A stretch of DNA of 64,000 nucleotides from Minisyncoccota bacterium (GCA_035510635.1 DATKGU010000010.1:2149-66148), one strand, 5' to 3'. Shown: positions 24,955-62,767, counted from the stretch's first letter. The notes: generated by a model not told the origin, from the letters alone. A program made the numbers and translations.

Positions 24955-24963
24955 AAACTATTT

Positions 24964-32610: not shown

Positions 32611-32614
32611 AACT

Positions 32615-32688: not shown

Positions 32689-32745
32689 ACCAAACGGTTG
32701 ATACTACTCCGTACTCAGTATAGTATCCTATGTCCTTTATAACTC

Positions 32746-33336: not shown

Positions 33337-33407
33337 TGCGGATAGGGAGAATCGAACTCCCACCTCGTCCTTGGCAAGGACGCGTCCTACCATTAAACAA
33401 TATCCGC
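33337..33407 (-). tRNA. tRNA-Gly (anticodon GCC), 71 nt, no encoded CCA
   Basis: Reverse complement GCGGATATTGTTTAATGGTAGGACGCGTCCTTGCCAAGGACGAGGTGGGAGTTCGATTCTCCCTATCCGCA; anticodon loop CTTGCCAAG. Confidence 0.85.
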
Positions 33408-33486
33408 GAGCTTCAAACCTGCTTACGAACACACGGAAATAGTATATCTTATTTTCTTAATATCACCAGCGCTTATGTATATAGTG

Positions 33487-33558
33487 TGCTCTCGGAGGGA
33501 TTCGAACCCCCAACAACTGCTTCGAAGGCAGCGATGATATCCATTTCACCACGAGAGC
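33487..33558 (-). tRNA. tRNA-Arg (anticodon UCG), 72 nt, no encoded CCA
   Basis: Reverse complement GCTCTCGTGGTGAAATGGATATCATCGCTGCCTTCGAAGCAGTTGTTGGGGGTTCGAATCCCTCCGAGAGCA; anticodon loop CTTCGAA. Confidence 0.75.
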
Positions 33559-33619
33559 CTGCAAGGCAATAGTATCTCTAAACACAGCAAAGCTCAAAAC
33601 ATCTGCTAGAATTGAGCGG

Positions 33620-37214: not shown

Positions 37215-37297
37215 GTGTCGCACAATTTTAGCACGAGAATGTTGGAACACACCGTGGGGTCTTGCGCAAATTGCGAGCCTGTGCTACCATATCGGGC

Positions 37298-44199: not shown

Positions 44200-45087
44200 A
44201 TGACTTTTTTGTCTCACATATTTTTATCAATAGTGCTGGTAGTACAAGGATTCTTTGGCCACGCTCAACCAATAGCCGTAGTGCCTATCGCGACCAGTAC
44301 CGTGAGCAACACTACTAATAATCTACAGGCAGCCACGACTTCTACAATTACAAAAACACCTCCAGTTATGACACCTGCAAGTGCGCCAGTAGTCACGCCA
44401 ACGGCTCCTTCAAACACAACCCTTTGCAATGGAACTTACTACACAAATTGTCCGAGTGGAAATACTTTAGTTTGCCCTAACAATGGAGGTAAAGCTTATT
44501 GCACATCTTCAACGCCCACACAGCAACCAACTCAAAAAGTTACACCTCCAACAGGAGTTACAACAGACATTGCTGCCACCCTTCAGATGAAAACAGAGTG
44601 CGCTACCTTAGGATTACAGAAAGAAAACAGTGACAAGACTAGTCTTATTGGTACTGAGAGTATAATTCGAGATGCATATGGTTACAGTCCTTCTCTCAAC
44701 ACCTGCGTTTATGCGGCTGAGTATGAATTCCCGACTCTGAATACAATAGATGCATCATTTTATAATTTAATAACCGGCACGGGTATTTCTTTGCCTCAAT
44801 CAGGTTCATGGCTCTCGAATACTCGCACCCTCCCAGCAGGAGAATTCAACTACAATGGTTGGGTTTATGACTGCAACAATCTCCCAAGTTTTATAAATAC
44901 AGGAAATCAGCTGGGACAACAAAATTGGGTCCAGGTTAACACTGGGCAGTCGTGTGGAGTTGTATGGATTTATACCCCAGGAATAGACACTACGAAAGCA
45001 GTTGCTGTCTTTAACAACGTACCCTACGACTATGTCGCTCAGGTTCAAAACTTTTGGACTGAATATTCCACTCTCGTCCCACAGTAA
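44200..45087 (+). CDS. secreted hypothetical protein, 295 aa, Thr/Ser-rich N-terminal region
   Basis: Signal peptide MTFLSHIFLSIVLVVQGFFGHAQP; several Cys; no recognisable domain. Confidence 0.55.
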   Translation: MTFLSHIFLSIVLVVQGFFGHAQPIAVVPIATSTVSNTTNNLQAATTSTITKTPPVMTPASAPVVTPTAPSNTTLCNGTYYTNCPSGNTLVCPNNGGKAYCTSSTPTQQPTQKVTPPTGVTTDIAATLQMKTECATLGLQKENSDKTSLIGTESIIRDAYGYSPSLNTCVYAAEYEFPTLNTIDASFYNLITGTGISLPQSGSWLSNTRTLPAGEFNYNGWVYDCNNLPSFINTGNQLGQQNWVQVNTGQSCGVVWIYTPGIDTTKAVAVFNNVPYDYVAQVQNFWTEYSTLVPQ

Positions 45088-45140: not shown

Positions 45141-46220
45141 CTAATTTGCAAAAGGGTTTTCGGCGCCACGGACTTCGAAATGGAGGTGGTTGCCTGTTGC
45201 CAGGCCGGTCATGCCAACCAAGCCTATCGTGTCGCCTTGGCTCACACTCGCACCCGCGCTGGTGAGTACTTTGCTCATGTGTGCATAGAGTGTTTCGGTG
45301 CCGTTGGGATGCGAGATAACCACATAGTTGCCGTACCCGCCGTTCCACGCGCCGTTGTCTTTTGCAACAATCACGGTGCCGTTTGCCGCCGCATAAATTG
45401 GAGTGCCTTTTGGCGCGCCAATGTCTACCGCGTTCCATCCGTGCAACCCTTGCGTGATAACCCCGCCTTGCAAGGGCCATGCAAAGTAGCCGGGGATAGC
45501 GGGGCCGCTGCCGCCCAAGTACGGCTCGGTGGTGCTGCCTTTTGCAATACTCTTAATCACCGAAGAGTGAGAGCCGCTCACGCTACTACCGGAAGATTTT
45601 TTAGTTGATGACGAACCGGATGAAATAGCGGACGCTTCACCATCGGGGATGATGATGCTGTCGCCAACCGTGAGCGAGTCGCTGTCGGCCAAGCCGTTGT
45701 ACGATGCAATGTCGTGCGCGTTTGATTTATATTTTGTTGCGAGCGAGGCGAGCGTGTCACCTTTTACAATGGTGTGCTGTATGCCGGTGATAGGGAGGAT
45801 GATGAGCGTTTGGCCCGGCGCGATGACGCCGCCTTGTATGTCGTTGGCCCACACAATGGTGTTGACCGAGACATTAAACATTGCGGCAATCTCCGAGAGC
45901 GTGTCGCCCGGGCGCACGGTGTACACGCTAATCTGCGAGCTTGCCGGCGTGCTTGCAATGTCGGCCGCGGTACCGTCGGGCCCCTGGTCGGGCGCCAAAG
46001 CCGAGCCGTCGACTACGGTAATATTGCCGCCGCCAGTTGCCGCATTTGGGTCGACATTGACTATTGCAGAGAGAAGCGGCATGGTCTGCGAATTGGAGGC
46101 CGAACTTACGGTGCCGGCATCTTGCGCGGTCTGATTAAACAAAGACCCTATAAAAGAAAGGGCGCTTGCTTGCGCAAGCACCGGTATAATGAGCACACCT
46201 AAAGACGCAGACCCCAGCAA
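45141..46220 (-). CDS. secreted LysM-domain M23 (lysostaphin-like) peptidoglycan peptidase
   Basis: Signal peptide; two LysM repeats (GDTLSEIAAMFNVSVNTIVWAN...; GDTLASLATKYKSNAHDIASYN...); M23 ...HPNGTETLYAHMS...GNHLHFEV. Confidence 0.85.
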   Translation of the reverse strand: MLGSASLGVLIIPVLAQASALSFIGSLFNQTAQDAGTVSSASNSQTMPLLSAIVNVDPNAATGGGNITVVDGSALAPDQGPDGTAADIASTPASSQISVYTVRPGDTLSEIAAMFNVSVNTIVWANDIQGGVIAPGQTLIILPITGIQHTIVKGDTLASLATKYKSNAHDIASYNGLADSDSLTVGDSIIIPDGEASAISSGSSSTKKSSGSSVSGSHSSVIKSIAKGSTTEPYLGGSGPAIPGYFAWPLQGGVITQGLHGWNAVDIGAPKGTPIYAAANGTVIVAKDNGAWNGGYGNYVVISHPNGTETLYAHMSKVLTSAGASVSQGDTIGLVGMTGLATGNHLHFEVRGAENPFAN

Positions 46221-48436: not shown

Positions 48437-49216
48437 ATGATTCCTAAAAAATCACTCGGCCAACATTTTTTACACAGCGCCTATTATCTGGGGCTCATGG
48501 CTGATGCGGCAAATGTTGGCCAGAGCGATTATATAGTGGAGGTGGGGCCGGGCGAGGGAGCGCTCACCGAGGTGTTGCTCACGCGCGGCGCCACCGTGGT
48601 GGCACTCGAAAAAGACCGCCGCTTAATACCGGTGCTGCAAGAAAAATTTAAAAAAGAAATTGCAAAAGAAAAATTTATTTTGCACGAGTGCGACGCGCTC
48701 GAGGTTGATATCGCAAAGCTCACTCCCAAAAATAAACCGTATAAAGTGGTTGCCAATATCCCGTACTACATTACCGGTGCGCTGCTGCAAAAATTTTTAA
48801 CGGGTGCCGCACAACCCAGCACCTTGGTATTTTTAATTCAAAAAGAGGTGGCCGAGCGCATTGCGAGGAGTAAAAAAGAAAGTATCCTTTCGCTCTCGAT
48901 AAAAGCATACGGCACGCCTACCTATGTTAAGACCGTGCCAAAAGGAGCCTTCTCTCCGCCGCCTACGGTAGACTCGGCCATTTTGCGCATCGAAGATATT
49001 TCGCGCACCCATTTTGCAAACGCCAACATGGAGAAACGGTTTTTTGCATTTGTTAAAACCGGATTTGCACAAAAAAGAAAGTTGCTCAAACGCAATGTAG
49101 AAAAGCTTGTAGGTAAAAAAGGGATAGGGGAGGCATTTGCCAAAGCCGGTATTGCCGACAACGCCCGCGCCGAGGATGTCTCGCTCCCAGAGTGGTTCGC
49201 GCTAGCCGAATATTAA
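48437..49216 (+). CDS. rsmA: 16S rRNA (adenine1518/1519-N6)-dimethyltransferase
   Basis: 259 aa; GQHFL..., ...VVEVGPGEGALT..., ...VVANIPYYIT. Confidence 0.9.
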   Translation: MIPKKSLGQHFLHSAYYLGLMADAANVGQSDYIVEVGPGEGALTEVLLTRGATVVALEKDRRLIPVLQEKFKKEIAKEKFILHECDALEVDIAKLTPKNKPYKVVANIPYYITGALLQKFLTGAAQPSTLVFLIQKEVAERIARSKKESILSLSIKAYGTPTYVKTVPKGAFSPPPTVDSAILRIEDISRTHFANANMEKRFFAFVKTGFAQKRKLLKRNVEKLVGKKGIGEAFAKAGIADNARAEDVSLPEWFALAEY

Positions 49217-50190
49217 GGAACAACGGACGAGCCGGCCTCCGGCGTGATAGTGCCAACTGCCGGTACAGGGAAACATGCGTCGCCAATGTAGGTAATGCAG
49301 CTTTGTACTCCCGGTTCATAGATACCGAGCGTTGCCACACCAGGAGCCGGCAGCGTGTGCCAGTTAAACGCTTCGGTACCATCAACATAGTCGAGCAAAA
49401 GATTTGAAGTTGGCGTTGGCGCGCCAAGTGATACAAAAATTTGAGTAACTCCCGGAGGACAATCGCAAATGAGCGGGTTGGAATAGGTAACAAAACCTCC
49501 AAAAGGCAGACCAACTCCCGCTTGTGCAATGTCTGGCATCAACAAACGTTTTGCGGATGCAATGATAATGTCAAAAACTTTTTGTGCAAACGGTTTGCTG
49601 AGTTCAATCGAAGCTTGTGTTTGATACAAAGTCTGCTGATCTTTAAAAAACTTTGCCTGGAAGTCGGTCGTTGATGCCGCCGTGGCCAATATTTTGGCAG
49701 TGATAAGCGCAAGCGTGGTTGATGAGTACCCTTGTTGCGCGCCCGCCTGATTTACAGCCGCAACATATTGTTGGAGTGGGGTAGAAGAGGTCGTGGCGGC
49801 TGCAGTTGTGGAAGTAGATGTACCTTTTTGCAACATCGCCAATGTGAGCGGACCCACAATACCGCTTGGGGTGGCAAGACCGGCAGGCACGAGTATCTCC
49901 GCGCTGTATTTGTTTTGATACCGCTTTACCGCATCAAGTGTTTTTGCCCCAAAATAGGAGCTTTCCATCCCCGGCGAGCCAATACCGGAAGCGGCCACCT
50001 CGGTATCGGGCGACTTATTGAGCAGTTGTTGCAAAAGAAGCACCTGCGGGCCGCTGTCGCCAAAGCGCAGTGTTGTAGAAATTCCTCCCGTTGCCGATGC
50101 CGTTGAAACAAATGCTCCGCACAATACTATAGAAAGGAGTGTTGCAAAGACGAATCGGATGCTCATACGTGCATATAGTATAACCCGCAT
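49213..50190 (-). CDS. secreted protein with an N-terminal peptidoglycan-binding (PG_binding_1-like) domain
   Basis: Real start probably MRVILYAR/MSIRFVF (50190 or 50166; the ORF-track start at 50844 is unlikely); signal peptide; ...LRFGDSGPQVLLLQQLLN...GAKTLDAVKRYQNKY; Thr/Ala-rich linker; Cys-containing C-terminal domain. Confidence 0.6.
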   Translation of the reverse strand: MRVILYARMSIRFVFATLLSIVLCGAFVSTASATGGISTTLRFGDSGPQVLLLQQLLNKSPDTEVAASGIGSPGMESSYFGAKTLDAVKRYQNKYSAEILVPAGLATPSGIVGPLTLAMLQKGTSTSTTAAATTSSTPLQQYVAAVNQAGAQQGYSSTTLALITAKILATAASTTDFQAKFFKDQQTLYQTQASIELSKPFAQKVFDIIIASAKRLLMPDIAQAGVGLPFGGFVTYSNPLICDCPPGVTQIFVSLGAPTPTSNLLLDYVDGTEAFNWHTLPAPGVATLGIYEPGVQSCITYIGDACFPVPAVGTITPEAGSSVVP

Positions 50191-50217
50191 AGAAATCGCT
50201 GTTATACTATTACTGTT

Positions 50218-51114
50218 ATGTATCTTCGCCGCTATCTGCCGAGCGCACAGTTTACGGTTATTGCTTTCTCGTTGCTCTTTGCCGGCGGCTTGGTGTACGG
50301 CGCGGAGCTTATCACCCAACCGCCCGCAAGCTCTGCCACGGTGAGTGCGGTTACAACCTCCGCATCCGACACAAACTCGGAAGATTGGCAGGCAACGCTC
50401 GATGCCATACAAGCGCAAAACGCCTCGAGCTCGCTCGCAGGTGCAACACCTCAAACGGTTGCGCAGATGTTGGCCGCCGCGCAAAGTTCCAACATTACCG
50501 ACTCGGTCGGCAAGAGCATACTTATCAACCTCAGCAACGCCAAGTCGCAAGGCCTTGGCGATGACACACCAACCCAAGACCAGATTATCTCTGCGGCCGC
50601 GGCGCAGGTTGCGGCAACCAAGCCAACGCACCAGTACACCGCCGCCGACCTCACAATTGTTGCCGACTCCAATGCCTCGCTTAAAGCGTATGGCAACGGC
50701 GTCATGCAAATTTTGGACAACAACCAGACCGCAAGCGAACAGGCAACACTCACCGCAATAGACAACGCCACCAGTAAAAACGATCCTTCGGAGCTTGATG
50801 CCCTCACGCCCATAGGTGCTGCATATCAAAACATCACCACACAATTGCTTGCGCTACCGGTACCGCAAACACTCTCACCTCTCCATCTCTCCGTGGTAAA
50901 CGCCTACGCAAGCATCGCCGCCACCTATCCCGACATGCAGGCGTCGCTCACCGACCCTCTGCGCGGTATCGTTGGCATACAAACATACGAAGCACAACTC
51001 CAGATGTTGGGCAGAGTGTTTACAAACATCGCGCAAGACCTCTCTAAAGACGGTATACTTTTTAACAAGGACGAGCCGGGAAGCGCATGGAGTATTGTTC
51101 TTTCGCCGCAATAA
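50218..51114 (+). CDS. hypothetical membrane-anchored Ala/Thr/Gln-rich extracytoplasmic protein (T4SS-cluster-associated)
   Basis: N-terminal TM VIAFSLLFAGGLVYGA; low-complexity helical-looking remainder. Confidence 0.5.
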   Translation: MYLRRYLPSAQFTVIAFSLLFAGGLVYGAELITQPPASSATVSAVTTSASDTNSEDWQATLDAIQAQNASSSLAGATPQTVAQMLAAAQSSNITDSVGKSILINLSNAKSQGLGDDTPTQDQIISAAAAQVAATKPTHQYTAADLTIVADSNASLKAYGNGVMQILDNNQTASEQATLTAIDNATSKNDPSELDALTPIGAAYQNITTQLLALPVPQTLSPLHLSVVNAYASIAATYPDMQASLTDPLRGIVGIQTYEAQLQMLGRVFTNIAQDLSKDGILFNKDEPGSAWSIVLSPQ

Positions 51115-51117
51115 CGC

Positions 51118-53085
51118 ATGACTAAAAAAATTCTTTACATCATCTTGGGTGCCATACTCGCTTTTGGCCTCCTCTTTTTGCTCTGGAGTTGGCTTTTTAG
51201 CGGCGGCAACACCGCACAAACCAACGGACAGTTTGGCACCGCAGGCAATGCCACGGGCAACGCAAGCTTAAACGCCAACTCCAACAACGGCCAGACCAAC
51301 CTCGGCCAAAACACCGCCAACGGCAGCATCCCGCTCAACGGCAGCAACACCAATGCAAACAGCGGCGGTATAAATGGCAACAGCAGCTCTTCGGGAGGCA
51401 GCGCCACGAGCGCGTTTGCCACCTACTCGCCAAGCGTCGCCGGCGTGCAATGGCTCAACAGTGCCGACAACAACTTTAATCCAACAGATATCAATAGCGT
51501 AAACGGCGCTTCAGTGGGGGGCACCGTGCCAACGTTGAGCAGTTTAAAGGGCTCAGGAAGCGGCGGCAATTCTCAACTTAATTTGTTGCTTGCGGCAGGA
51601 TTGATAGGCGTCGGCTCATGCGCACTGCAGGCATCAGGACAAACAATTGGTTCGCTTATTGGAGGAGGAACGGCAGCCCTAGCCCCTAGCGTAGCAGGAA
51701 CAGCCTTAGCGGTTCCTACTGACGATATCGAGACGCACACTCTTCAAGGTGCGCAGCTTGCAAATACCGCAGGTCATAACGTTGTGACCTTTCAAGGCTG
51801 CCTTACCAACGTGCTCGCCAAAATTGCTTTGCAGCAAATTACCGCGAGCGTGGTCAACTGGATCAACTCCGGCTTTAAAGGACAGCCATCTTTTGTAACT
51901 AACTATCAGCAATTTTTTGACAATGTCGCCAACCTCGCTGCCGGGCAATTTATACAAGGCGCGGGGCTGTCATTTTTATGCTCACCTTTTAAAGCCCAAA
52001 TAAAAATCGCCGTGGCGCAAAGTTATGCCAACCGGGGAGCGCAGTCATGTACGCTCACGAGCGTCATCAACAACATCAACAGCTTTATGAACGGCAACTT
52101 CTCGCAAGGAGGCTGGCCGGGGCTTATCTCTTACACCACGACGCCCACCAACAACCCCTACGGCGCGTATGCCTATGCACAAATAGGGTTGGTAACCGCG
52201 CAAAATAACGCGGTGGCAAACGCCAAGAGTAATATCTCACCAACAGGATTTTTAAACATGGTGCAACAAAGTTGCAGCGGAGTAACCAGCGTCAGCTCGT
52301 CGGTGACTGCAGGTCAAAACAGCCAAGCTGCCCAAGTGTCATGTCCCTCTGGATGCACCTGCAAAACAACCACGCCGGGCAGCGTTATTGAGGCCTCGCT
52401 CAACAAAACGCTCGGCAGCGGCGTCGACCAGCTTGGCCTTGCAAGCGACCTCGACCAAATTATCAACGCACTCACCACCCAACTCCTTACCCAAGCTCTG
52501 CAAGGCGGCCTCTCTAATCTTTCGGGTACCGACGGCGTGCAAAGCTCGTATCAAACCCCCGAAGAGCAAGCTGCGCAGACTCAAGCGCAGGGCATACTCA
52601 CCAACCTGCAAGCGCAAGTGGGCTACGCGCAGCAATACGGCTCGATAGAGCAGGGGAGCATCAGTGATATCGAAAACGCGCAGTCGGCTCTTAACAGCCT
52701 TATCAATTGCTGGGACGGCATTGCTTCGTCAACATCGTTTAGCTCGAGCCAACAAAGCACGGCCGCATCCAATGCAGCAAATGCGCAGGCAACCTCCAAC
52801 ACGTTTGATGCGCAGATAACCTCCTACAACAACGCCATCACCGCGGTTAATGCCGAGATAGCCACCATCGAGGAGTTACAAACCGAGGCGCTCTCGATTG
52901 CCTCCACGGCCGATGTCGACCAGCTCACCACCGACTACAACAATGCGCAAAGCACGACGCCGTTTATCTCGGCAACCGATGTAACCACCGCGCAGCAAAA
53001 CCGCACCACGCTGCAAAGCCAGCTTGCTTCGCTTAACACCTCAACACAGGAGAGCCTCACGCAATGCCAAGCGTTTGGGCACTAA
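51118..53085 (+). CDS. large membrane-anchored Asn/Gly/Ser-rich surface protein (T4SS-cluster-associated)
   Basis: 655 aa; N-terminal TM, about 130-aa N/G/S low-complexity tract, then a Cys-containing globular region. Confidence 0.55.
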   Translation: MTKKILYIILGAILAFGLLFLLWSWLFSGGNTAQTNGQFGTAGNATGNASLNANSNNGQTNLGQNTANGSIPLNGSNTNANSGGINGNSSSSGGSATSAFATYSPSVAGVQWLNSADNNFNPTDINSVNGASVGGTVPTLSSLKGSGSGGNSQLNLLLAAGLIGVGSCALQASGQTIGSLIGGGTAALAPSVAGTALAVPTDDIETHTLQGAQLANTAGHNVVTFQGCLTNVLAKIALQQITASVVNWINSGFKGQPSFVTNYQQFFDNVANLAAGQFIQGAGLSFLCSPFKAQIKIAVAQSYANRGAQSCTLTSVINNINSFMNGNFSQGGWPGLISYTTTPTNNPYGAYAYAQIGLVTAQNNAVANAKSNISPTGFLNMVQQSCSGVTSVSSSVTAGQNSQAAQVSCPSGCTCKTTTPGSVIEASLNKTLGSGVDQLGLASDLDQIINALTTQLLTQALQGGLSNLSGTDGVQSSYQTPEEQAAQTQAQGILTNLQAQVGYAQQYGSIEQGSISDIENAQSALNSLINCWDGIASSTSFSSSQQSTAASNAANAQATSNTFDAQITSYNNAITAVNAEIATIEELQTEALSIASTADVDQLTTDYNNAQSTTPFISATDVTTAQQNRTTLQSQLASLNTSTQESLTQCQAFGH

Positions 53086-53088
53086 CGT

Positions 53089-55551
53089 ATGAAAAAATTT
53101 CTTATTACCGTCTCGAAATACTCAGTAACGACGAGCATGGCTCTCGCAATCGCGTTCTCACCGCTTGCCCAGCTTGCTTCTATTGCACAGGCTGACACAT
53201 TGCCCGCCGACACATCCAGTTTTGCCGGTGGATATACGGCGCCCTCAGCGTCTTACACTTCGTCGGCACCTGCGGTGCAATCAACTAACACGGGCATCAA
53301 TTCTACTGTTGGCGACTCATCGGGTGCCTCGAGTCCGGCCTCAACCGCCACTGCAGCCGGGACTAACAACACGCCAGGGGCAACAGACCCTACGGGTGTA
53401 AGTTGTAGTTGGAGCCCAAGCGATTGGGACCTTTGTTTTACCAACGTAGTGTACGCGTTTACCGTGGGCATCGGCAGTGGCTTTGCCTATGTCGCGGCGG
53501 AGTTTTTTAACTTGGCGGTCAATCTCTCGCTCAACGGCCCCATCTACGCGCTCACTTTTATCTCAACCGGCTGGACCACGGCGCGCGACTTGGCCAACAT
53601 GGCGTTTATTTTTATCCTCATTTATATCGCGTTTATGCTCATCTTTGAGGCGGAGACAAGCCATACCATGTCGCTCCTCGCAGGCGTCATTGTTATTGCG
53701 CTCTTGGTAAACTTTAGCTTCTTTTTTACGCGCCTCGTGATAGATGCGGGCAACATTCTTTCAATACAATTTTACAATTCCATACAGGCACCCAGCATAC
53801 AATCGACCGCCCAAAGCTCCACTGTCGCGTCTGCCGTAAACACTGCGGCCGGCTCCATCTTGGGCGCGAACATGCAAACGAAAGACTTAACCGCGAGCAT
53901 CATGGGGATGCTCCAACTCCAAAATCTTTTTAATTCTAACTCTTTCACCACTTTTCATCAGCAGGCCGGATTCTTTACGCAGATAATTGTCCTGTGCTTT
54001 TTGTACATTGGCGCCGCTATCATGTTTTATCTCCTTACGGTGACCTTTGTCACCGTAGGCATCAAATTTTTAGTGCGCATCGTGATACTGTGGTTCCTCA
54101 TCATATTCTCGCCGCTCGCATTTGTGGCGCGGGCCACACCCGAAAAAGGCCCCCTGCGCCATTACTTTAAAGATTGGCTGGAAGCGCTTATTTCCCACGC
54201 CTTTTATCCGGTGGCGTTTATGTTTATCTTCCTTATCCTCACCAATTTTACCAACCAGATGGGGAGCTGTACCAGCAACGGGAGCTCCAGCTCGCAAAGC
54301 TGCCTTATCAACGACGTGTTTACCTCTTTGCAAGGCAGCGCCACAAGCTCGAGCTCGGCCATTGCCGTGATGGGCTTGGCGTTTGCCAACGTAGCCATTC
54401 GCCTCGGATTTGTCATCGCTATCCTTTATCTGGGCCTCAAAGCAGCTGATAGCGTGAGCGTCATGGGTGCTAGCGCAGCCCAAAAAGCCGGCAACTGGGC
54501 AGGCGGTAAATTTAAAGCCTCAACATTGGGGCTTGGAGGCGTTGCCTTCCGCGAAACCATTGGGCACCACGCACAAAATACTATTGATACTGCAAAGAAA
54601 AACCCGCCAGGAAATATTGTCGGCCAATATATGGACTTTGCTCTGCGTAAAAATGTGTTGACTCCTCTGACAAAAACTTCAATAGGAGGTGCCAAATCGT
54701 ATACCGATGTAGTGGCATCCAGAAAAGAAGTGAGGGAGGATTGGAATAAAAACGTAGACGAACATCTTGTTAACATAAAAAACCGCGAGGATGAGAAGGA
54801 ACTTGCCAAACTTGATGAACAATGGAATCCGCTGGCGAAGAAACTTGAAACTATGGAGGATGAACTAAAACAACTCAAGTCGCTCCCGCCCAACCCTGTA
54901 AATGGCACGCGAGTAATAACCAAACAAGGCGAAATTGATGATTTCAAGGAAAAAGAAATGGACCCTCTGCGCCCACGACGTGAACAGCTTATTGCCAATA
55001 TGGGCAAAATGGAAGGCTCTCAGGTTACCGCATTGGCTGCAAAAGATCTCGAAAAGATAATCAAACATATTTCCGACAAACAAATAAAGGCAATCAAAGA
55101 TAGCCTCAAATACAGCAGGACAGAAAAGGACACGCTTGAACGTAAATGGAATGAGCAATCCACCAAAGCGCCACTAGCCGAATCGAGAGAACAGCTCAAA
55201 AAACTGGGCGAGCTGCATGAGCAGCTCCAGGTACTTCATGTTGACCTAAAGACCGTCGGCGCCGCTGCAAAACCAGCGCCCAATCAAACCTTTAATGTCA
55301 ATTTGGGCACAACAAAGAAAATGAAGAAAGAGATCGAAGACAGACTAGAGGAACAAGAAAAGATACGGGATGACCGTCTCCTCGAAAAAAATGATGATGG
55401 CAAACGACAACGTTCAGAAGCGGGTGAGGCAGCTAAAAAACTCAAGAAAGCTCTTGAGAATATTACAAAATTGGAAGAAAAGGTTAAGGATATTCCTGAC
55501 AGTGTTGGGGGCACCCGCAACGAAGGAGAGTTTGTTAACACCGGAAAGTAG
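53089..55551 (+). CDS. VirB6/TrbL-like polytopic T4SS channel protein with a secreted N-domain and a C-terminal coiled-coil
   Basis: 820 aa; signal sequence, about 100-aa Ser/Thr/Ala-rich tract, at least 6 TM helices (…IFILIYIAFMLIF…, …VIVIALLVNFSFFF…, …IIVLCFLYIGAAIMFYLL…), Lys/Glu-rich coiled-coil tail. Confidence 0.55.
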   Translation: MKKFLITVSKYSVTTSMALAIAFSPLAQLASIAQADTLPADTSSFAGGYTAPSASYTSSAPAVQSTNTGINSTVGDSSGASSPASTATAAGTNNTPGATDPTGVSCSWSPSDWDLCFTNVVYAFTVGIGSGFAYVAAEFFNLAVNLSLNGPIYALTFISTGWTTARDLANMAFIFILIYIAFMLIFEAETSHTMSLLAGVIVIALLVNFSFFFTRLVIDAGNILSIQFYNSIQAPSIQSTAQSSTVASAVNTAAGSILGANMQTKDLTASIMGMLQLQNLFNSNSFTTFHQQAGFFTQIIVLCFLYIGAAIMFYLLTVTFVTVGIKFLVRIVILWFLIIFSPLAFVARATPEKGPLRHYFKDWLEALISHAFYPVAFMFIFLILTNFTNQMGSCTSNGSSSSQSCLINDVFTSLQGSATSSSSAIAVMGLAFANVAIRLGFVIAILYLGLKAADSVSVMGASAAQKAGNWAGGKFKASTLGLGGVAFRETIGHHAQNTIDTAKKNPPGNIVGQYMDFALRKNVLTPLTKTSIGGAKSYTDVVASRKEVREDWNKNVDEHLVNIKNREDEKELAKLDEQWNPLAKKLETMEDELKQLKSLPPNPVNGTRVITKQGEIDDFKEKEMDPLRPRREQLIANMGKMEGSQVTALAAKDLEKIIKHISDKQIKAIKDSLKYSRTEKDTLERKWNEQSTKAPLAESREQLKKLGELHEQLQVLHVDLKTVGAAAKPAPNQTFNVNLGTTKKMKKEIEDRLEEQEKIRDDRLLEKNDDGKRQRSEAGEAAKKLKKALENITKLEEKVKDIPDSVGGTRNEGEFVNTGK

Positions 55552-55565
55552 TATAATGGCTATAT

Positions 55566-56225
55566 ATGGCTGACTCTGTAAGTTCAGACGACATACAAAA
55601 ACTCATAGCGGCACTGCCACCGGAGGTTAAATCGTTGCTCTACAGCAAAGAGATGGATGATGTCATGCAACAAATTGGCACCAAACATCAGCTGCACATA
55701 GACCAAATCGGCGAGCTGGAAAGCGAGGTGGCTGCGGCTATGATTGGTATCAGCCAGATGCAAGAGTTGCCGCAAAATATCAGCGACACGCTAGAGGTTG
55801 ATATGACAAAAAGTAACGCCCTTGTTGCGGATATCAATCTGCTTTTGCTTGATAAAATCCGCTCGTCGATGAAAAAGAATGATGCTGATAAGTCGGTTAT
55901 TATGCCCTCGGCTATGGCTGCTTCTGCATCTGCGACTGCGCCTACACCTCCTGCCACCTCTGCACCTGTTCCAACAGCTCCAGTTGCACCAACACCTACA
56001 GCCGCTCCTCTCCCTACCGACATGCAGATTGACCCTCCTGCCACTCAACCAACTCCGGCTCCGGCAAAAGTTGTTGCTCCTGCACCTCAAATGCCCGAAG
56101 CCGATGTTATGTTGAGCGAGCCAACGGTTAGCTTGCCCAAAAAGGTTGAATCTGCTCCAACTCCAACCAAAATAGAAGTACCCACTACTTACAAAGCCGA
56201 CCCGTATCGCGAACCTATTGAGTAA
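55566..56225 (+). CDS. hypothetical protein with a Pro/Ala/Thr-rich C-terminal half
   Basis: 219 aa; about 110-aa N-terminal globular or helical region, then ...TAPTPPATSAPVPTAPVAPTPTAAPLP... Confidence 0.5.
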   Translation: MADSVSSDDIQKLIAALPPEVKSLLYSKEMDDVMQQIGTKHQLHIDQIGELESEVAAAMIGISQMQELPQNISDTLEVDMTKSNALVADINLLLLDKIRSSMKKNDADKSVIMPSAMAASASATAPTPPATSAPVPTAPVAPTPTAAPLPTDMQIDPPATQPTPAPAKVVAPAPQMPEADVMLSEPTVSLPKKVESAPTPTKIEVPTTYKADPYREPIE

Positions 56226-56265
56226 AAGGGGAGAGTAGTGATATTTTTGCGATATACTATAGCTA

Positions 56266-56712
56266 ATGCGCTATCAGGTTCCTCAATTTATCGAAATCGA
56301 AGACAAGATATTTGGGCCGCTTACCTTTAAGCAGTTTATTTATCTCGCGGGCGCAGGCGGCGTATGCCTTTTGTTTTTTACTCTGTTGCCGCTCTACATC
56401 GCCGTGCTTTGCATGATTCCTTTTATTGCGCTGGGCTTCGCACTCGCCTTTTACAAGGTCAACGGCCGGCCGTTTATTGTGGTGCTCGAGCACGCGTTTG
56501 GATACTTTTTTGGCCACAAGCTCTATTTGTGGAAACAGCACAGCGCAAAAACCCCTTCGGCGGTAGCGCAGGCTCCCGCGGCGGCCATGGGCACGCTCAC
56601 CGTGCCCAAACTTTCCAACAGCAAGCTTAAAGACCTAGCCTGGTCGCTCAACATTAAAGACAGGAGCACGATGGGTGTGGTCGACACGAGCCGCACGGGT
56701 TTTGAAATATAA
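56266..56712 (+). CDS. PrgI/VirB3-like small T4SS membrane protein
   Basis: 148 aa; N-terminus MRYQVPQFIEIEDKIFGPLTFKQFIYLAG followed by two TM helices, typical of the PrgI family. Confidence 0.65.
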   Translation: MRYQVPQFIEIEDKIFGPLTFKQFIYLAGAGGVCLLFFTLLPLYIAVLCMIPFIALGFALAFYKVNGRPFIVVLEHAFGYFFGHKLYLWKQHSAKTPSAVAQAPAAAMGTLTVPKLSNSKLKDLAWSLNIKDRSTMGVVDTSRTGFEI

Positions 56713-56723
56713 CTATCACGCAT

Positions 56724-57392
56724 ATGCCAAACAGCACACCAGTAAAAGCGCAGGCCACACAGGAGTTTGTACCTATTAAAGAGGTGCGCGATGGTATCGT
56801 CATACTCAAAGACGGCTCTTTGCGCGCCATACTCATGGCCTCGTCTATCAACCTCGCGCTCAAAGGCGCCGACGAGCAGCAGGCGATTATCGGTCAGTTT
56901 CAAAGCTTTTTAAACTCGCTTGAGTTTACGGTGCAATTTTTTATCCAAAGCCGCGACTTGGACATCCGGCCATATATTGCTCTCCTCGAAGACCGCTACG
57001 CGCAAGAGCTCGACGACCTCATGAAGATACAAATACGCGAATACATGGCGTTTATCAAAGACTTTACCTCGCGCGCCAACATCATGACCAAAAACTTTTT
57101 TATCGTCGTGCCTTACGACCCGGCGCTCATGGTGCGCGGCGGAGGCGTTGGCGGCGCGATTGGCTCGCTGTTTCCATCCAGCTCCGGAGGTTCGGCCGCA
57201 CTCACCAACGAGCAGTTTGAGCAATATCGCACCCAGCTTGAGCAGCGCGTCTCGGTTATCGAGCAAGGCCTTGTGCGCACCGGCGTGCGCATTGTAAACC
57301 TCGGCACCGAGGAGGTGATAGAGTTATTCTACAAGCTCTTTAATCCGGGCGAGCTCGAAAAGCCTTTGCAGGTAACGCAGATTGCTAAATAA
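56724..57392 (+). CDS. VirB4-N-terminal-domain-like protein (separately encoded module upstream of the VirB4 ATPase)
   Basis: 222 aa; FVPIKEVRDGIVILKDGSLRAILMASSINLALKGADEQQAIIGQFQSFLNSL resembles the first conserved block of Gram-positive VirB4/PrgJ/TcpF; stop TAA 4 nt before the next ATG in another frame. Confidence 0.5.
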   Translation: MPNSTPVKAQATQEFVPIKEVRDGIVILKDGSLRAILMASSINLALKGADEQQAIIGQFQSFLNSLEFTVQFFIQSRDLDIRPYIALLEDRYAQELDDLMKIQIREYMAFIKDFTSRANIMTKNFFIVVPYDPALMVRGGGVGGAIGSLFPSSSGGSAALTNEQFEQYRTQLEQRVSVIEQGLVRTGVRIVNLGTEEVIELFYKLFNPGELEKPLQVTQIAK

Positions 57393-57396
57393 CACT

Positions 57397-59244
57397 ATGG
57401 CACTTCTCGACTTTTTAAAATCTTCCAGGCCAACATCCGCCGCGACGCCGGTGGCGCCCATTTTGCCCGAGCAAATATACAAAGAGGGCGTGCTCGAGCT
57501 CCAAGATGTCATTGCGCCTTCGGCGCTTAAGATAACGCCGCGCGAAATAAACCTGGGCGACAAAATTGCGCGCACCTTTTTTGTCATGTCATATCCGCGT
57601 ATCCTTACCGACAGCTGGTTTGCACCGGTTATCAACCTTGACCGCGTGCTCGACATCTCAATTTTTATCCATCCGCTCGACTCGGCCGACATTTTAAAGA
57701 AATTCCAAAAAAAGGTGGCCGAGGTGCAAAGCCAAATTATGGTGCGGGAAGAAAAGGGCATGGTGCGCGACCCAGTGCTCGACACTGCCTACCAAGACTT
57801 GGAGAGTTTGCGCGACCAACTCCAACAGGCGCAAGAAAAACTTTTTGACGTCGGCGTGTACATCACCATCTACGACAAAACTGCCGAGGATTTGGACAAA
57901 GCCGAGAGCGAAATTAAGTCGATGCTCGAGAGCCGGCTGGTGTATGTAAAACCGGCGCTTTTCCAACAAGAGCAGGGGTTCAAAAGCGTGCTGCCAATCG
58001 GCCGCGACGAACTCAACGTCAACTCAAAGCTCAACTCTTCGCCGCTTTCCTCAATCTTCCCGTTCGTTTCCTTCGACCTCACCAGCGACAAAGGCATTTT
58101 GTATGGCGTAAACAGACATAATGCCAGTTTGGTCTTATTTGATCGATTTTCTCTCGAGAATTACAACTCGGTTATTTTTGCCAAGTCGGGCTCGGGCAAA
58201 AGCTACGCTACCAAGCTTGAGATTTTGCGTACGCTCATGTTTGATACCGAGGTTATCGTTATCGACCCGGAGCGCGAGTACGAGTTTTTGGCGCAAGCCG
58301 TGGGCGGACGCTACTTTAACATCTCGCTCAACTCCGAGCACCACATAAACCCGTTTGATTTGGCGCCGCCCCGCGAGGATGAGAGCGCAGCCGACATTTT
58401 GCGCAGCAACATTGTGGCGCTCGTGGGCCTGTTTCGCATCATGCTCGGAGGCTTAAGCCCGGAGGAGGACGCCATTATCGACCGTGCGATTACCGAAACC
58501 TACGCGCTCAAAGACATTACGGTGGACAGTAATTTTGCCGAGATAGAGCCGCCGCTCCTCTCTGACTTTGAGCTTGTGTTGGCCGGCATGGAGGGAAGCG
58601 AGAGTTTGGTGCAACGCCTCTCCAAATATACCAAGGGCACGTGGAGCGGGTTTATCAACCAGCCCACCAACGTCGATATCAACAAAAAGTTTGTGGTCTT
58701 CTCGGTACGCGACATGGAGGACGACCTCAAGCCCGTGGCCATGTACATCATTACGCACTTTATATGGAACACGGTGCGCAAAAATCTCAAAAAGCGCCTG
58801 CTGGTTATCGACGAAGCGTGGTGGATGATGAAAAGCGATGACACGGCAAGCTTCTTGTACAGCATGGCAAAGCGCGGCCGCAAATATTATCTCGGCCTCG
58901 CAACGATTACCCAAGACGTCGATGACTTTTTAAAGTCGCCGTACGGCTTGCCGATGATTACCAACTCGTCGATACAAATCTTGCTCAAACAATCGCCGAC
59001 CACTATCGATAATTTGCAAAAAACATTCAACCTCTCCGACGAAGAAAAGTTTTTGCTCCTCGAGAGCGATGTGGGGGAGGGGATATTTTTTGCAGGCTTG
59101 AAGCACGTGGCCATTAAAGTGATAGCCTCGTATACCGAAGACCAGATTATTACCTCCGACCCATCACAGGTGCTCGCACTCCGCAAACAGCGCGCCGACG
59201 TTGCCGACGCGCAAGCGGGCACCCCGCAAGGCGCGGTACAATAA
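57397..59244 (+). CDS. VirB4/TrbE/PrgJ-family T4SS ATPase
   Basis: Start at MALLDFLKS (ORF-track start at 57382); ...ITPREINLGDKIARTFFVMSYPRILTDSWFAPVIN...; Walker A IFAKSGSGKSY; Walker B ...LLVIDEAWWMM. Confidence 0.8.
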   Translation: MALLDFLKSSRPTSAATPVAPILPEQIYKEGVLELQDVIAPSALKITPREINLGDKIARTFFVMSYPRILTDSWFAPVINLDRVLDISIFIHPLDSADILKKFQKKVAEVQSQIMVREEKGMVRDPVLDTAYQDLESLRDQLQQAQEKLFDVGVYITIYDKTAEDLDKAESEIKSMLESRLVYVKPALFQQEQGFKSVLPIGRDELNVNSKLNSSPLSSIFPFVSFDLTSDKGILYGVNRHNASLVLFDRFSLENYNSVIFAKSGSGKSYATKLEILRTLMFDTEVIVIDPEREYEFLAQAVGGRYFNISLNSEHHINPFDLAPPREDESAADILRSNIVALVGLFRIMLGGLSPEEDAIIDRAITETYALKDITVDSNFAEIEPPLLSDFELVLAGMEGSESLVQRLSKYTKGTWSGFINQPTNVDINKKFVVFSVRDMEDDLKPVAMYIITHFIWNTVRKNLKKRLLVIDEAWWMMKSDDTASFLYSMAKRGRKYYLGLATITQDVDDFLKSPYGLPMITNSSIQILLKQSPTTIDNLQKTFNLSDEEKFLLLESDVGEGIFFAGLKHVAIKVIASYTEDQIITSDPSQVLALRKQRADVADAQAGTPQGAVQ

Positions 59245-59248
59245 CACT

Positions 59249-59710
59249 ATGAAGCCCTTGTATATTTTTCCACTTCTGTATGCTCTTTTTATCACTGGCA
59301 TTACCGATGGAGTATCGGCAGCGCTTGTGTTTATCCCGGGTGTTGGAATTGCGCTTGCGCTTGTTTTTACCTGCAGCATCAATATCACCATGGGCAGCGG
59401 GCTCATATTACTTCTCGTAAAGAACGGCATGTATCACCCCACGTGGGGGCCAGCGGGAACTATTGCTGCCTTTATCCCCGGCCTCGACTTCTTGCCATTT
59501 TGGTTGGGAATTGTTATCACCGGGATTGTTCAGGATATGAAAAAAGAAGGCGGTGTACTTGGCACTGTGGCGAGCGTTGCAACGTTGGCAAGCTCGCCAT
59601 CAATTAAAAATGCCACATCAACTATGGGGAAAATAAATACCATGCAACACGACATCATGCCGCGCCCGGCAAACAACAACCAACCATCTTATGTACAACA
59701 AGCCGCTTAA
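59249..59710 (+). CDS. hypothetical small polytopic membrane protein (T4SS-cluster-associated)
   Basis: Start at the internal MKPLYIFPLL; 3-4 TM helices. Confidence 0.5.
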   Translation: MKPLYIFPLLYALFITGITDGVSAALVFIPGVGIALALVFTCSINITMGSGLILLLVKNGMYHPTWGPAGTIAAFIPGLDFLPFWLGIVITGIVQDMKKEGGVLGTVASVATLASSPSIKNATSTMGKINTMQHDIMPRPANNNQPSYVQQAA

Positions 59711-60719
59711 TTACATTTTTTTGTTTTGCACCGCACTTCTTTTGGCGGGAGTGGCTCATGCGCAATCAAGCGTGGTGCCTGCGCCTATACAATATGTTGT
59801 CTCGCCCGAGACACCGGGGCCCAACACGCAAGTAACCATCGAGGTGCAAGGTGTGGGCACCTTTATCGGCAACTCCACTATCACCTGGAGCCAAAACGGC
59901 ACCGTGGTGTCGCAAGGAGTTGGCCAGCACGACTTTACATTTACCACCGGCGCAATAGGTACCGAGACGCAGATAAAAGTAACGGTTAATTCCTCAACAC
60001 AAGGCACGCTCACCAACAGTTGGACGTTTATCCCTTCGGCAGTCAACTTGGTGTGGGAGGCGGACACCACGGTGCCGCCGCTCTATAAAGGCAAAGCACT
60101 CTACAGCGGCGGTTCGGATGTTAAAGTGGTGGCGTTCCCAAGCCTCGCGATCAACGGCAGCAGCTTGCCGGTAAGCAGCCTCTCGTTTCAATGGACGCTC
60201 GACGGCGACCCTCTGCCCGATCAGTCGGGCCTTGGACAAAATTCTCTCACTTTTACCGGCAGCCAACTCCAAAAAGAGGAGGATGTTTCGGTTGATGTCT
60301 ATTACGGCTCAACAAAAGTGGGCACAGGCTCGGTAGCTATACCTGCAAGCGACCCCGAGCTCGTACTCTACGACAAAGACCCTTTGCGCGGCATTATTTT
60401 TGACTCGGCACTGCCTGCCGGTATCTCACTCGACAGCAACGAGCTCACCGTACAAGCCGTACCATACTTTTTTTCTAACAGCAGTTTGGCCAACGGCGCG
60501 CTTACCTATGCGTGGACTCTCAACGGCAACGATACAAGCGGGCCCAACTCGGCCAGTGGAGAGTTAAGCTTGGTGCAATCGGGCTCGGGGAGCGGCAGCG
60601 CCACACTTGGCGTGACACTGCAAAATAACGACACCGACAAGCTCGTGCAAGCAGCCAACGCGGCGCTTCAAATAATCTTTGGCACACAATCATCAAACAG
60701 CGGCCTCTTTGGACTATGA
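59691..60719 (+). CDS. secreted beta-rich hypothetical protein (T4SS-cluster-associated)
   Basis: 342 aa; signal peptide MYNKPLNYIFLFCTALLLAGVAHA; Thr/Ser/Gly-rich, repetitive beta-strand-like segments. Confidence 0.55.
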   Translation: MYNKPLNYIFLFCTALLLAGVAHAQSSVVPAPIQYVVSPETPGPNTQVTIEVQGVGTFIGNSTITWSQNGTVVSQGVGQHDFTFTTGAIGTETQIKVTVNSSTQGTLTNSWTFIPSAVNLVWEADTTVPPLYKGKALYSGGSDVKVVAFPSLAINGSSLPVSSLSFQWTLDGDPLPDQSGLGQNSLTFTGSQLQKEEDVSVDVYYGSTKVGTGSVAIPASDPELVLYDKDPLRGIIFDSALPAGISLDSNELTVQAVPYFFSNSSLANGALTYAWTLNGNDTSGPNSASGELSLVQSGSGSGSATLGVTLQNNDTDKLVQAANAALQIIFGTQSSNSGLFGL

Positions 60720-61513
60720 AAAAACTTTTTACCTGCACAATACTAAGTCTTGGCATCCTGGCGGGTTTAACGATGCCTTTTATAGCCTTGGCTGCCACGG
60801 TCGCCACATGCACCAACTGCAACCTGTCATACACGCCGCTTGAGCCTATACCGGGCGTAACCACTGGCGCCAATCTCACGAGCCCTGATAGTTTGTCGGT
60901 TATTGTGAACGCGATTTTTACTATCCTCATAAGTGTCGGCGCACTCCTTGCAGTGCTCATGCTCACCATTGGGGGTATCCAATACATGGTTTCGAGCGCC
61001 ATCACCACCAAACAGCAAGGTCTTAAAAGAGCGCAAGCCGCATTGTGGGGGATAGTGCTCATCGCGGCCTCGTGGCTTATATTGCACACCATTAACCCCT
61101 ACCTGACTCAGATAACCTTAAACCCGTGTTTGCCGGGCGATACCACGTGTACGGTTACAGGGACAGCGGCACCGACCGCAGCGACACCTGCCTTAACACA
61201 GGAGCAGATAGCTGCCCAAGCTACACAAACAATCGTAAACGGAGTTAATCCTTCAGACTCTGAGTCACTTCAAAATATAACAGCAGCCGAACAAACACTT
61301 CAGCAACAAAATGCAACCCAGCAAACCGCGTGTATTTACAATCATGGCACTCCACTATCTGGAACGGAGGGGTCACAAAATGATCCACGTATAGCATGCG
61401 GTAGTAATGGGAAATACACGAATTGCACGTCCATTGTTTCACCCCAACCTTCTCAGGCAATAGGCCTAGGCGGTGTTGCTGGTTTAGTATATGAATGTGG
61501 GTACAACAATTAA
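60716..61513 (+). CDS. VirB2/TrbC-like T4SS pilin with an about 150-aa Thr/Gln/Cys-containing C-terminal extension
   Basis: Signal peptide; hydrophobic hairpin VIVNAIFTILISVGALLAVLMLTIGGIQYMVS ... LKRAQAALWGIVLIAASWLILHTINPY typical of TrbC/VirB2 pilins. Confidence 0.55.
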   Translation: MKKLFTCTILSLGILAGLTMPFIALAATVATCTNCNLSYTPLEPIPGVTTGANLTSPDSLSVIVNAIFTILISVGALLAVLMLTIGGIQYMVSSAITTKQQGLKRAQAALWGIVLIAASWLILHTINPYLTQITLNPCLPGDTTCTVTGTAAPTAATPALTQEQIAAQATQTIVNGVNPSDSESLQNITAAEQTLQQQNATQQTACIYNHGTPLSGTEGSQNDPRIACGSNGKYTNCTSIVSPQPSQAIGLGGVAGLVYECGYNN

Positions 61514-61519
61514 ATCTAT

Positions 61520-62767
61520 ATGAGTAAAAAACCCATTATTTATATACTTTCTGGACTGCTTGTAGTTTTAGTTTTGGTTTTTGGTGTGTGGTTTTTGTTT
61601 TTCCGCACCACTTCTACCCCAGTGACCTCTACTGCTACGTTATTTGGAGCATCGGCAAACAACACTACCACGGCCACCCCCAACACGAGCGCGGGCACTA
61701 CGGCTAACGGTACACTTCCTGCCGCACAATCAACAACACAAAAAATATTTGAGATAAACGCAGGCCCTGTTGCAGGCGCCACACTCATACAAACACTGCA
61801 TCCCACGACCACGCTCGCGCGCTATGTAAATCAGGAGGATGGCCACGTGTACGATATGCCGCTTGATGTGTCGGGCGCAGTGCCGCGCGTTGTGTCCGAT
61901 GTAACCATCCCCGGCATTGAGGGGGTGGTGTGGCTTGAGGCTGGAAATGCCGCGATTTTACAATATATCGATACCGACGGTGTAACAGTTAAAAGCGTCT
62001 ACCTCGGATTGCCCGCGGCAACTACGAGCACTCAACTTGCGGCAACGCGCATACAATTTTTGCCCGACAATATTATCAGCTTAGCCGCATCCCCCGATGG
62101 TAAAAGCGTTGCCTACTTGCTAAAAACCCCGAGCGGCTCAAGTGGCTATAGTGCAAATTCGGATGGTACGGGTGCCAAAAAACTTTTCTCGCTCCCGCTT
62201 GCACAAGTACTCATACAATGGCCATCATCTAAAACTATTCTTGTGACAACCAAAAGCGATTTTAATTCGCAAGGAATGCTTTTTGTAATTAATGCAAGCA
62301 CCGGTAGTATTGCCCCTGCACTGTATGCCCAAGGACTCACGGCAGTTGCCGATCCAAGCTTTGCAAATATTATTTATCAAGCAGTCTCTCAGAGTACCAA
62401 CTCAAGCGCAACATATATACACAACATAAAAGCCGGCGGTGATTTGCCACTACCTTTCAACCCATTCCCCGAGCAGTGCATATTTAGCACGGCAACAAGC
62501 ACGAGCATGTACTGCGCGGCGCCTCTCTCTTACGAAGCGCCAGGGTTTCTCGATTTATGGCATCAAGGCACCGCCTCGGCGGTCGACGCAATTTATTCTT
62601 TTAATATCCAAGACGATTCGGCAAGCCTCACGGCTGCACCTGGTTCCGGGAACCAAGGCGGCGTTGCTTCCGACATATTAGAAATGGCGCTTTCGCCCGA
62701 CGAGCACTATCTTTCCTTTACAACCAAAGGCACACGTGAGTTGTGGGGCGTGCGGCTCAGTAATTAG
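61520..62767 (+). CDS. membrane-anchored TolB-like/PD40 beta-propeller-like protein
   Basis: 415 aa; N-terminal TM, Thr-rich linker, repeats of the ...SPDGKSVAYL... / ...ALSPDEHYLSFTT... type. Confidence 0.5.
   Translation: MSKKPIIYILSGLLVVLVLVFGVWFLFFRTTSTPVTSTATLFGASANNTTTATPNTSAGTTANGTLPAAQSTTQKIFEINAGPVAGATLIQTLHPTTTLARYVNQEDGHVYDMPLDVSGAVPRVVSDVTIPGIEGVVWLEAGNAAILQYIDTDGVTVKSVYLGLPAATTSTQLAATRIQFLPDNIISLAASPDGKSVAYLLKTPSGSSGYSANSDGTGAKKLFSLPLAQVLIQWPSSKTILVTTKSDFNSQGMLFVINASTGSIAPALYAQGLTAVADPSFANIIYQAVSQSTNSSATYIHNIKAGGDLPLPFNPFPEQCIFSTATSTSMYCAAPLSYEAPGFLDLWHQGTASAVDAIYSFNIQDDSASLTAAPGSGNQGGVASDILEMALSPDEHYLSFTTKGTRELWGVRLSN

Follow-up and report, generated by a model that had tools for sequence, protein, structure and literature searches.

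Patescibacteria, which are ultrasmall and depend on host cells, account for a large share of bacterial diversity, and no type IV secretion system (T4SS) other than theirs has been shown to be essential for the growth of its bearer. In Southlakia epibionticum, a homologous gene cluster (SEML1_0006-0019) was found by transposon sequencing (Tn-seq) to be essential for epibiotic growth; it resembles the conjugative T4SSs known from Gram-positive bacteria and includes essential pilins, without a recognisable coupling protein or relaxase (Wang et al., 2023, PMC10633639). A survey of 3,035 genomes placed Patescibacteria VirB4 in a monophyletic clade nested in MPF_FATA (Quinonero-Coronel et al., 2025, PMC12102498). 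TrsD was the most abundant accessory component in this survey, PrgI, VirB6, and VirB2-like pilins were found near virB4, and VirB8 was rarely found outside the ABY1 class (PMC12102498). In Paceibacteria, the T4SS was located close to dnaA, dnaN, rnpA, ksgA, and rpmH, and very few relaxases were found in the survey as a whole (PMC12102498). The Patescibacteria-clade T4SS derives from monoderm MPF_FATA conjugation machinery; a 2025 review treats the Patescibacteria systems as a new T4SS group (PMC12857230), and in methanogen-parasitising Paceibacterales the T4SS pilins are among the highest-expressed genes of unknown function (PMC10936435). The present analysis concerns a 64-kb stretch of a Paceibacteria genome (hereafter the window, to which all statements on gene absence apply). 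On sequence grounds, positions 50218-62767 of the window are an 11-gene chromosomal operon of the Patescibacteria-clade T4SS, with neither a relaxase nor a coupling protein alongside. The existence, make-up, and chromosomal position of such clusters have been published (Wang et al., 2023; Quinonero-Coronel et al., 2025). What is new here is the split in conservation between core and exposed parts, a modular pilin with enzyme-bearing orthologues, and a first gene product (g1) that is predicted to be all-alpha and not VirB8. As a clean and complete Paceibacteria example, the locus adds testable detail: a fixed ATPase core, hypervariable exposed parts, a modular pilin carrier with an occasional hydrolase or protease, no VirB8 or VirB1 equivalents found in the operon, and a g1 that is not VirB8-like.

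The eleven genes (g1 to g11) are all on the plus strand and tightly packed, with gaps of 3 to 40 nucleotides (nt) and two gene pairs overlapping by 4 and 20 nt (junctions as end/start: 51114/51118, 53085/53089, 55551/55566, 56225/56266, 56712/56724, 57392/57397, 59244/59249, 59710/59691, 60719/60716, and 61513/61520). This packing, together with the overlaps, indicates that g1-g11 form one operon with translational coupling. Promoter and terminator scans were uninformative, as the site counts equaled the shuffled expectation. An earlier note on this DNA had described a Gram-positive-type T4SS cluster here; every open reading frame (ORF) it listed is present where it had been placed, and VirB4, PrgI, TrsD, and the pilin are backed by curated models. 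However, its gene list was incomplete, as it left out the conserved first gene, g1 (50218-51114, 298 amino acids (aa)). By sequence, the source organism is assigned to Candidatus Paceibacterota (Patescibacteria/candidate phyla radiation, CPR): a metagenome-assembled genome of this group encodes a protein with 100% identity to the VirB4 of the window, and the identity to this VirB4 exceeds 89% in thousands of proteins from Patescibacteria.

For comparison, VirB4-homologue loci were fetched from 80 GTDB species, labelled as Nomura-, Kaiser-, Adler-, Campbell-, or Taylorbacteria or as Paceibacterota, and from six metagenomic contigs (86 loci). The gene order uvrD-ksgA-(g1 to g11)-jag-yidC, then rnpA-rpmH-dnaA-dnaN, recurs across about 80 Paceibacteria species; ksgA, jag, and yidC lie within the window, and rnpA, rpmH, dnaA, and dnaN come directly next in the syntenic relatives. 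Because these flanks are common to about 80 species, the operon is ancestral in this class, vertically inherited, and situated beside oriC, rather than an integrated element. The contrary explanation sees in the locus the transfer module of an ordinary Gram-positive-type integrated conjugative element, or what is left of one after decay, with a relaxase and a coupling protein that are either encoded beyond the window or no longer present. Its VirB4 does belong to the CD1110 conjugal-transfer family, the order VirB6-PrgI-VirB4, with g3 as a putative VirB6, is as in clostridial plasmid modules, and the window contains a Xer-type recombinase gene (36303-37250). Housekeeping genes, however, separate this recombinase from the operon over a distance of 13 kb, no integrase adjoins the operon in the window, and the ksgA/jag junction is consistently occupied between identical housekeeping flanks. 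The operon has the same GC content as the remaining window and is not flanked by att-like direct repeats, as the search for them gave nothing but short and imperfect matches that lie within genes and are attributable to chance. Among the ORFs of at least 150 aa across the window, Pfam scans revealed no VirD4, relaxase, or VirB11, and the sole T2SSE ATPase (16447-18057, minus strand) carries an MshEN domain, which indicates that it is PilB-like. Furthermore, VirB4 is constrained more than the housekeeping genes, the opposite of decay, and only 109 relaxases were counted in 3,035 Patescibacteria genomes (PMC12102498). That the locus is such an element or remnant is very improbable. The earlier note had likewise argued against a classical conjugative element, and its reading holds: the window contains no relaxase, no VirD4, and no att repeats of an element that would enclose the locus.

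The locus shares with the Patescibacteria-clade T4SS a VirB4 next to a TrsD-like protein, a PrgI/VirB3 protein, a putative VirB6-like protein, and a VirB2-like pilin, as well as the lack of a relaxase or type IV coupling protein (T4CP) in the cluster, a chromosomal location near ksgA, yidC, rnpA, and dnaA, and a monoderm bearer. It differs in having one modular pilin, in contrast to the arrays of 2-11 reported in Microgenomatia and Saccharimonadia, in that virB4 is not directly followed by a gene for a peptidase or lysozyme, and in encoding six proteins that are class-specific and have no family assigned (g1, g2, g4, g8, g9, and g11). Essentiality, in addition, has been shown for the Saccharibacterium only. 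With the CTn2/CD1110 subclass of MPF_FATA, exemplified by pCDC3875 of C. botulinum, the locus has in common the CD1110-family VirB4 (30-36% identity) and, on the putative assignment of g3, the VirB6-PrgI-VirB4 order. The module of pCDC3875 (VirD4-x-VirB6-PrgI-x-VirB4-x-SLT/NlpC hydrolase) differs by its VirD4 (CD1115), its relaxase, its large SLT+NlpC/P60 hydrolase, its lack of a pilin, and its unsplit 797-aa VirB4. The window, on the other hand, has a VirB2-like pilin, no VirD4 or relaxase, and no operon-encoded hydrolase, and the locus is not mobile. A separately encoded TrsD-like VirB4-N protein also links the locus to the pGO1/pSK41 Trs system, in which it occurs in pGO1. The diderm systems Bordetella Ptl, Brucella VirB, and Helicobacter ComB combine VirB4 with VirB2, VirB3, and VirB6 and likewise have no coupling protein or relaxase. 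Unlike the locus, they possess an outer-membrane core (VirB7/9/10), usually accompanied by VirB11 and VirB8; not one of these is detectable here.

The operon proteins were searched against Pfam and NCBIfam models, and the center of the operon encodes the ATPase core. The seventh gene, g7 (57397-59244, plus strand), encodes a VirB4 ATPase of 615 aa from its ATG, which matches NF045971 (the CD1110 family; 2.9e-118, 396 bits against a cut-off of 325) over model positions 185-733, as well as PF19044 (1.4e-27, 96.8 bits). Both its Walker A (AKSGSGKS, 58180-58203) and its Walker B (LLVIDE, 58798-58821) motifs are intact. VirB4 is 75-93% identical across the 80 Paceibacteria species, and the closest VirB4 proteins outside the CPR are CD1110-type proteins of Firmicutes and Actinobacteria plasmids (30-36% identity). 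The preceding gene, g6 (56724-57392, plus strand), encodes a TrsD/TraD-like protein that represents a separately encoded VirB4 N-terminal domain (NF041427, 5e-10). Two VirB4 models are matched by it as well, that of CD1110 over positions 2-116 and that of Mbov_0397 over positions 100-233, and PF26593 (TraC-like) is recorded on its orthologues. As g6 matches the N-terminal part of VirB4 and g7 covers positions 185-733, the pair reconstitutes a full-length VirB4 as two genes. The one overstatement of the earlier note lies in treating this split as lineage-specific: the TrsD family was known before, and no other T4SS component is reported more often in Patescibacteria. Upstream of this pair, g5 (56266-56712, plus strand) encodes a PrgI/VirB3-like protein with a transmembrane (TM) hairpin at aa 23-66 (PF12666, 2.4e-11, 44.4 bits with the gathering threshold (GA) at 27), which was found in 79 of the 86 loci. 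The models for VirB2, VirB3, and VirB4 are all above their thresholds, so that these three assignments of the earlier note stand.

The VirB6 component is less clear. The third gene, g3 (53089-55551, plus strand), encodes a putative VirB6-like polytopic protein of 820 aa that ends in a K/E-rich coiled-coil tail of 300 aa; about 6 TM segments (aa 165-459) lie between this tail and an N-domain rich in S/A/T. The polytopic architecture and the coiled-coil tail are as first described, but the family match is not attained: the PF04610 (TrbL) score (E = 1.7e-3, 18.6 bits) is below the GA of 25.9. A weak TrbL/VirB6 match was present in 6 of 33 g3 orthologues (best 1.6e-4), an hhalign comparison of g3 with the clostridial CD1112 VirB6 was negative (probability 0.1), and a profile search of the PDB returned coiled coils only. 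As in the clostridial module, where VirB6 precedes PrgI, g3 lies upstream of PrgI. From its predicted topology and position, the VirB6 label is plausible, though not established.

The genes of the operon have evolved at strikingly different rates. The median identity to the window proteins across loci is 79% for VirB4, 61% for TrsD, and 51% for PrgI, the VirB4 value being biased upward somewhat relative to neighbour genes by the choice of loci according to VirB4 similarity. In contrast, it is only 26-35% for g1, g2, g3, g4, g9, g10, and g11. The locus of a close relative (L086) was used as a reference for the identities at short distance. Between L086 and the window, the amino-acid identity of the T4SS core (VirB4 98%, PrgI 95%, and TrsD 95%) exceeds that of the housekeeping proteins (uvrD 88%, yidC 92%, jag 91%, and ksgA 74%), whereas the other components range from 89% (g9) through 71% (g4), 67% (g3 and g11), 64% (g8), and 62% (g1) to 57% (g2). 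The pilins of the two loci can be aligned over the 100-aa core only (68%). At the DNA level, the comparison yields a mosaic, in which blocks of 70-86% identity alternate with segments without detectable similarity; these segments fall on exposed low-complexity regions and on the pilin extensions. By these comparisons, the ATPase core is more conserved than the housekeeping genes, and the predicted exposed parts are fast-evolving.

The pilin has a modular architecture. The VirB2-like pilin gene, g10 (60716-61513, plus strand; PF18895 T4SS_pilin, 3.7e-8, 33.8 bits against a GA of 26.6), holds the only pilin core of the window, and the TrbC/VirB2 model also matches some of its orthologues. The protein has a signal peptide and a core (aa 36-135) that spans a Y-x-P-L-E-P motif and two TM helices and runs to T-I-N-P. 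The core is followed by a C-terminal extension with six cysteines and no known family. The pilin had been recognised before, with an extension of 150 aa; the extension comprises 130 aa (residues 136-265). The Y-x-P-L-E-P motif (60830-60847, aa 39-44), a possible maturation site, precedes the Pfam pilin domain by a short distance and hardly varies among 150 family representatives. The family contains 9,270 representative clusters at E<=1e-3, with proteins of 117-795 aa in which the position of the core is variable, and the regions on either side of the core show great variation in length and sequence among orthologues. In nine of the compared loci (L031, L033, L037, L040, L049, L052, L057, L058, and L067), the pilin gene and the g11 propeller gene are in swapped order.

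In a survey of 58 syntenic orthologues and the 150 family representatives, a minority of the pilins carried enzyme domains. SLT domains are present in L066 (14879-15865), L034 (13885-15303), P0415, P0416, and P0430, the last three of which have 2-4 pilin cores followed by the SLT domain. A CHAP domain is found in L041 (15320-16366), and an NlpC/P60 domain in two pilin orthologues. L072 (13113-14222) appears to carry a VanY/M15-like domain, judged by eye, as the Pfam match has only E = 0.05, and L009 (13299-15038) has an N-terminal subtilase (5.6e-18). Such pilin-enzyme fusions go unmentioned in the 2025 survey (PMC12102498). A kinship of the pilin core with the membrane region of Gram-positive VirB1-type hydrolases was considered and rejected, as a hidden Markov model of the pilin core found no match among the transfer proteins of pCDC3875. 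We tentatively propose, as a possibility that we would not yet favor, that the Paceibacteria pilin is an 'evolved pilin', i.e., a conserved VirB2-like polymerisation core that carries interchangeable N- or C-terminal modules, which belong to no known family in the majority of species, the present one included. Under this proposal, the pilus may display wall-degrading or adhesive modules on the host surface, or free them there after processing at Y-x-P-L-E-P, and an arms race with hosts would account for the contrast between an extremely conserved ATPase core and exposed segments that are replaced like cassettes. Such a logic, if true, resembles that of polymorphic toxin systems and is not described for any T4SS.

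Six proteins of the operon have no family assignment. The first, g1 (plus strand), has an N-terminal TM anchor (aa 10-33) and no match in Pfam or NCBIfam. It is matched in 41 of the 86 fetched loci, always at the first-gene position. According to an AlphaFold2 (AF2) model (predicted local distance difference test, pLDDT, of 78, and >90 for aa 140-298), g1 consists of helices throughout and would form an extracytoplasmic all-alpha bundle. The idea that g1 is the missing VirB8 was rejected on this account, and a Foldseek search of the PDB retrieved only generic 4-helix bundles (E>0.7).

The second gene, g2 (51118-53085, plus strand), encodes a TM-anchored protein of 655 aa without a Pfam or NCBIfam family. 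A disordered spacer rich in G/N/S (aa 30-190) is followed by a conserved domain that contains Cys (aa ~225-470) and in which columns of Cys, Trp, and Gly are invariant, and the C-terminal part is a bundle of long helices. All of its 390 homologues are 'hypothetical' proteins of Patescibacteria, a few of which have PG_binding_1. The AF2 model of g2 is confident only for aa 480-655, with a pLDDT <50 over the Cys-rich domain; no PDB fold match was found at E<0.2, nor any sequence-profile match, and a VirB5-like reading of the C-terminal helix bundle is without support.

The cytoplasmic protein g4 (55566-56225, plus strand) has no TM segment and no family, and is made up of a conserved N-domain and a Pro/Ala-rich linker. 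Near its C-terminus it carries a DPYRE motif (aa 212-216) that all 65 orthologues at this position share without change and that is absent from the remaining ORFs of both the window and the fetched loci; this motif may be a docking peptide. The product of g8 (59249-59710, plus strand) is a small, fast-evolving polytopic membrane protein with 3-4 predicted TM segments and no family, the slot of which is occupied in relatives by a gene of 150-220 aa. The secreted or anchored protein g9 (59691-60719, plus strand), previously described as a secreted beta-rich protein, has three tandem Ig-like domains, with repeats around W66, W168, and W275 and a profile match to phage Hoc (E = 2.8e-4), and it was found in 82 of the 86 loci. 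Finally, g11 (61520-62767, plus strand), a TM-anchored protein found in 72 of the 86 loci, is probably a beta-propeller of the TolB/Tricorn-N type by profile comparison. The TolB-like propeller of the earlier note is thus retained on a weak match (PDB TolB, E = 0.008), and PF26549 (Tricorn_N) is weakly recorded on orthologues.

These features are probably best explained by a T4SS operon that serves host contact and probably exchange, rather than conjugation. In this model, a VirB4 hexamer with its separate TrsD-like N-domain would dock on the PrgI/VirB3 hairpin and the VirB6-like protein at the cytoplasmic membrane. The ATPase core would pull the Sec-inserted VirB2-like pilin from the membrane and polymerise it into a pilus or conduit, and g1, g2, g8, g9, and g11 could provide a lineage-specific envelope-spanning scaffold that replaces VirB7-10. 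The apparatus would contact the host cell and probably exchange with it, through protein delivery or uptake of host material and not through conjugative DNA export, and the variable extensions of the pilin, along with the other exposed segments, would be the host-facing surfaces. That the locus is a chromosomal host-interaction machine of an epibiotic organism with a small genome had been suggested before, and the Paceibacterota VirB4, the conserved flanks, and the agreement with the published clusters (PMC10633639, PMC12102498) support it.

Several points count against this explanation. Observations of a substrate, an effector, or a pilus are lacking for all Paceibacteria systems, and the function is assigned by analogy with one Saccharibacterium. 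The genome could encode a T4CP beyond the 64 kb seen; T4CP-like matches are common in Patescibacteria genomes, but rarely near virB4 (PMC12102498). No VirB8-like bitopic protein with an NTF2 fold was identified in the operon, where the fold check bore on the best candidate, g1, and searches with Pfam and NCBIfam found no hydrolase domain in g1-g11 that would represent a VirB1-like hydrolase. The sub-threshold score of g3 and the selection of loci by VirB4 similarity are to be added to these points.

The missing relaxase and T4CP are also shared with Helicobacter ComB, and the operon could accordingly serve in DNA uptake, as ComB and the archaeal Ced system do, by bringing DNA from the environment or the host to the membrane for ComEC and ComM to finish the import. 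The window does encode comEC, recJ, a pilB-like ATPase, and comM, T4SS loci of the ABY1 class co-localise with comF, recG, and radA (PMC12102498), and weak NCBIfam matches to CedB (34.8 bits) and CedD (18.9 bits) were obtained. These scores, however, are far below the cut-offs of 700 and 600, and the competence genes of the window are 6-40 kb off and not syntenic with the operon. In S. epibionticum, moreover, competence uses type IV pili and ComEC, and a comEC deletion is viable, whereas the T4SS is essential (PMC12857230). DNA uptake is hence quite unlikely to be the function of the operon. The competence and type IV pilus genes, none of which adjoins the operon, are comEC (9955-11436, minus strand), recJ (12202-13890, minus strand), the PilB-type MshEN ATPase on the minus strand described above, and comM (42465-44054, plus strand).

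A further explanation confines the machine to the envelope of its bearer, as a pilus for adhesion or motility only or as a device for remodelling of the wall or S-layer, without translocation to or from a host. In canonical systems, pilins are extracted and pili assembled with no need of an ATPase besides VirB4, which would be compatible with such a role, as would the lack of a T4CP. Several partners of the ATPase core have a structural or adhesive appearance, with Ig-like domains, a propeller, and spacers of low complexity and great length, and some orthologous pilins carry peptidoglycan hydrolase domains. Adhesion, however, is already part of the host-contact model, and sequence data cannot separate the two. 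The rapid turnover of the exposed segments suits a host-facing interface better than a housekeeping role in the envelope, and a purely own-envelope function seems unlikely.

Outside the operon, the window is occupied by housekeeping genes. Upstream are tuf, fusA, comEC, rnhA, recJ, pgk, tpiA, and the PilB-type ATPase gene, as well as nusA, ppa, tig, clpP, rny, cca, the Xer-type recombinase gene, pnp, comM, the LysM-M23 peptidase gene, uvrD, and ksgA; jag and yidC follow downstream. The two upstream genes of the earlier note, a divergent secreted peptidoglycan-binding protein and a LysM-M23 hydrolase, are both present. The LysM+M23 gene (45141-46220, minus strand) is 4 kb upstream of the operon, beyond uvrD and ksgA. 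The divergent gene (49213-50193, minus strand) encodes a secreted protein of 326 aa with a PG_binding_1 domain (PF01471, 3.2e-6) and a Cys-rich C-terminal part without a known family. Homologues of it were found in only 9 of the 86 fetched loci, and its absence from the close relative L086 indicates that the system does not include it as a conserved component. What lies between ksgA and g1 is variable, in that close relatives have either nothing or unrelated genes of 107-159 aa there.

Two ORFs between pnp/comM and the LysM-M23 gene (40706-41947, plus strand, 413 aa; and 44200-45087, plus strand, 295 aa) have no Pfam family. Lower GC contents (0.45-0.47) were recorded at 24001-26000 and 30001-34000, with a strongly negative GC skew at 30-34 kb. 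The low-GC region contains four tRNA genes (29765-33558) and is near the Xer-type tyrosine recombinase gene, which is on the minus strand.

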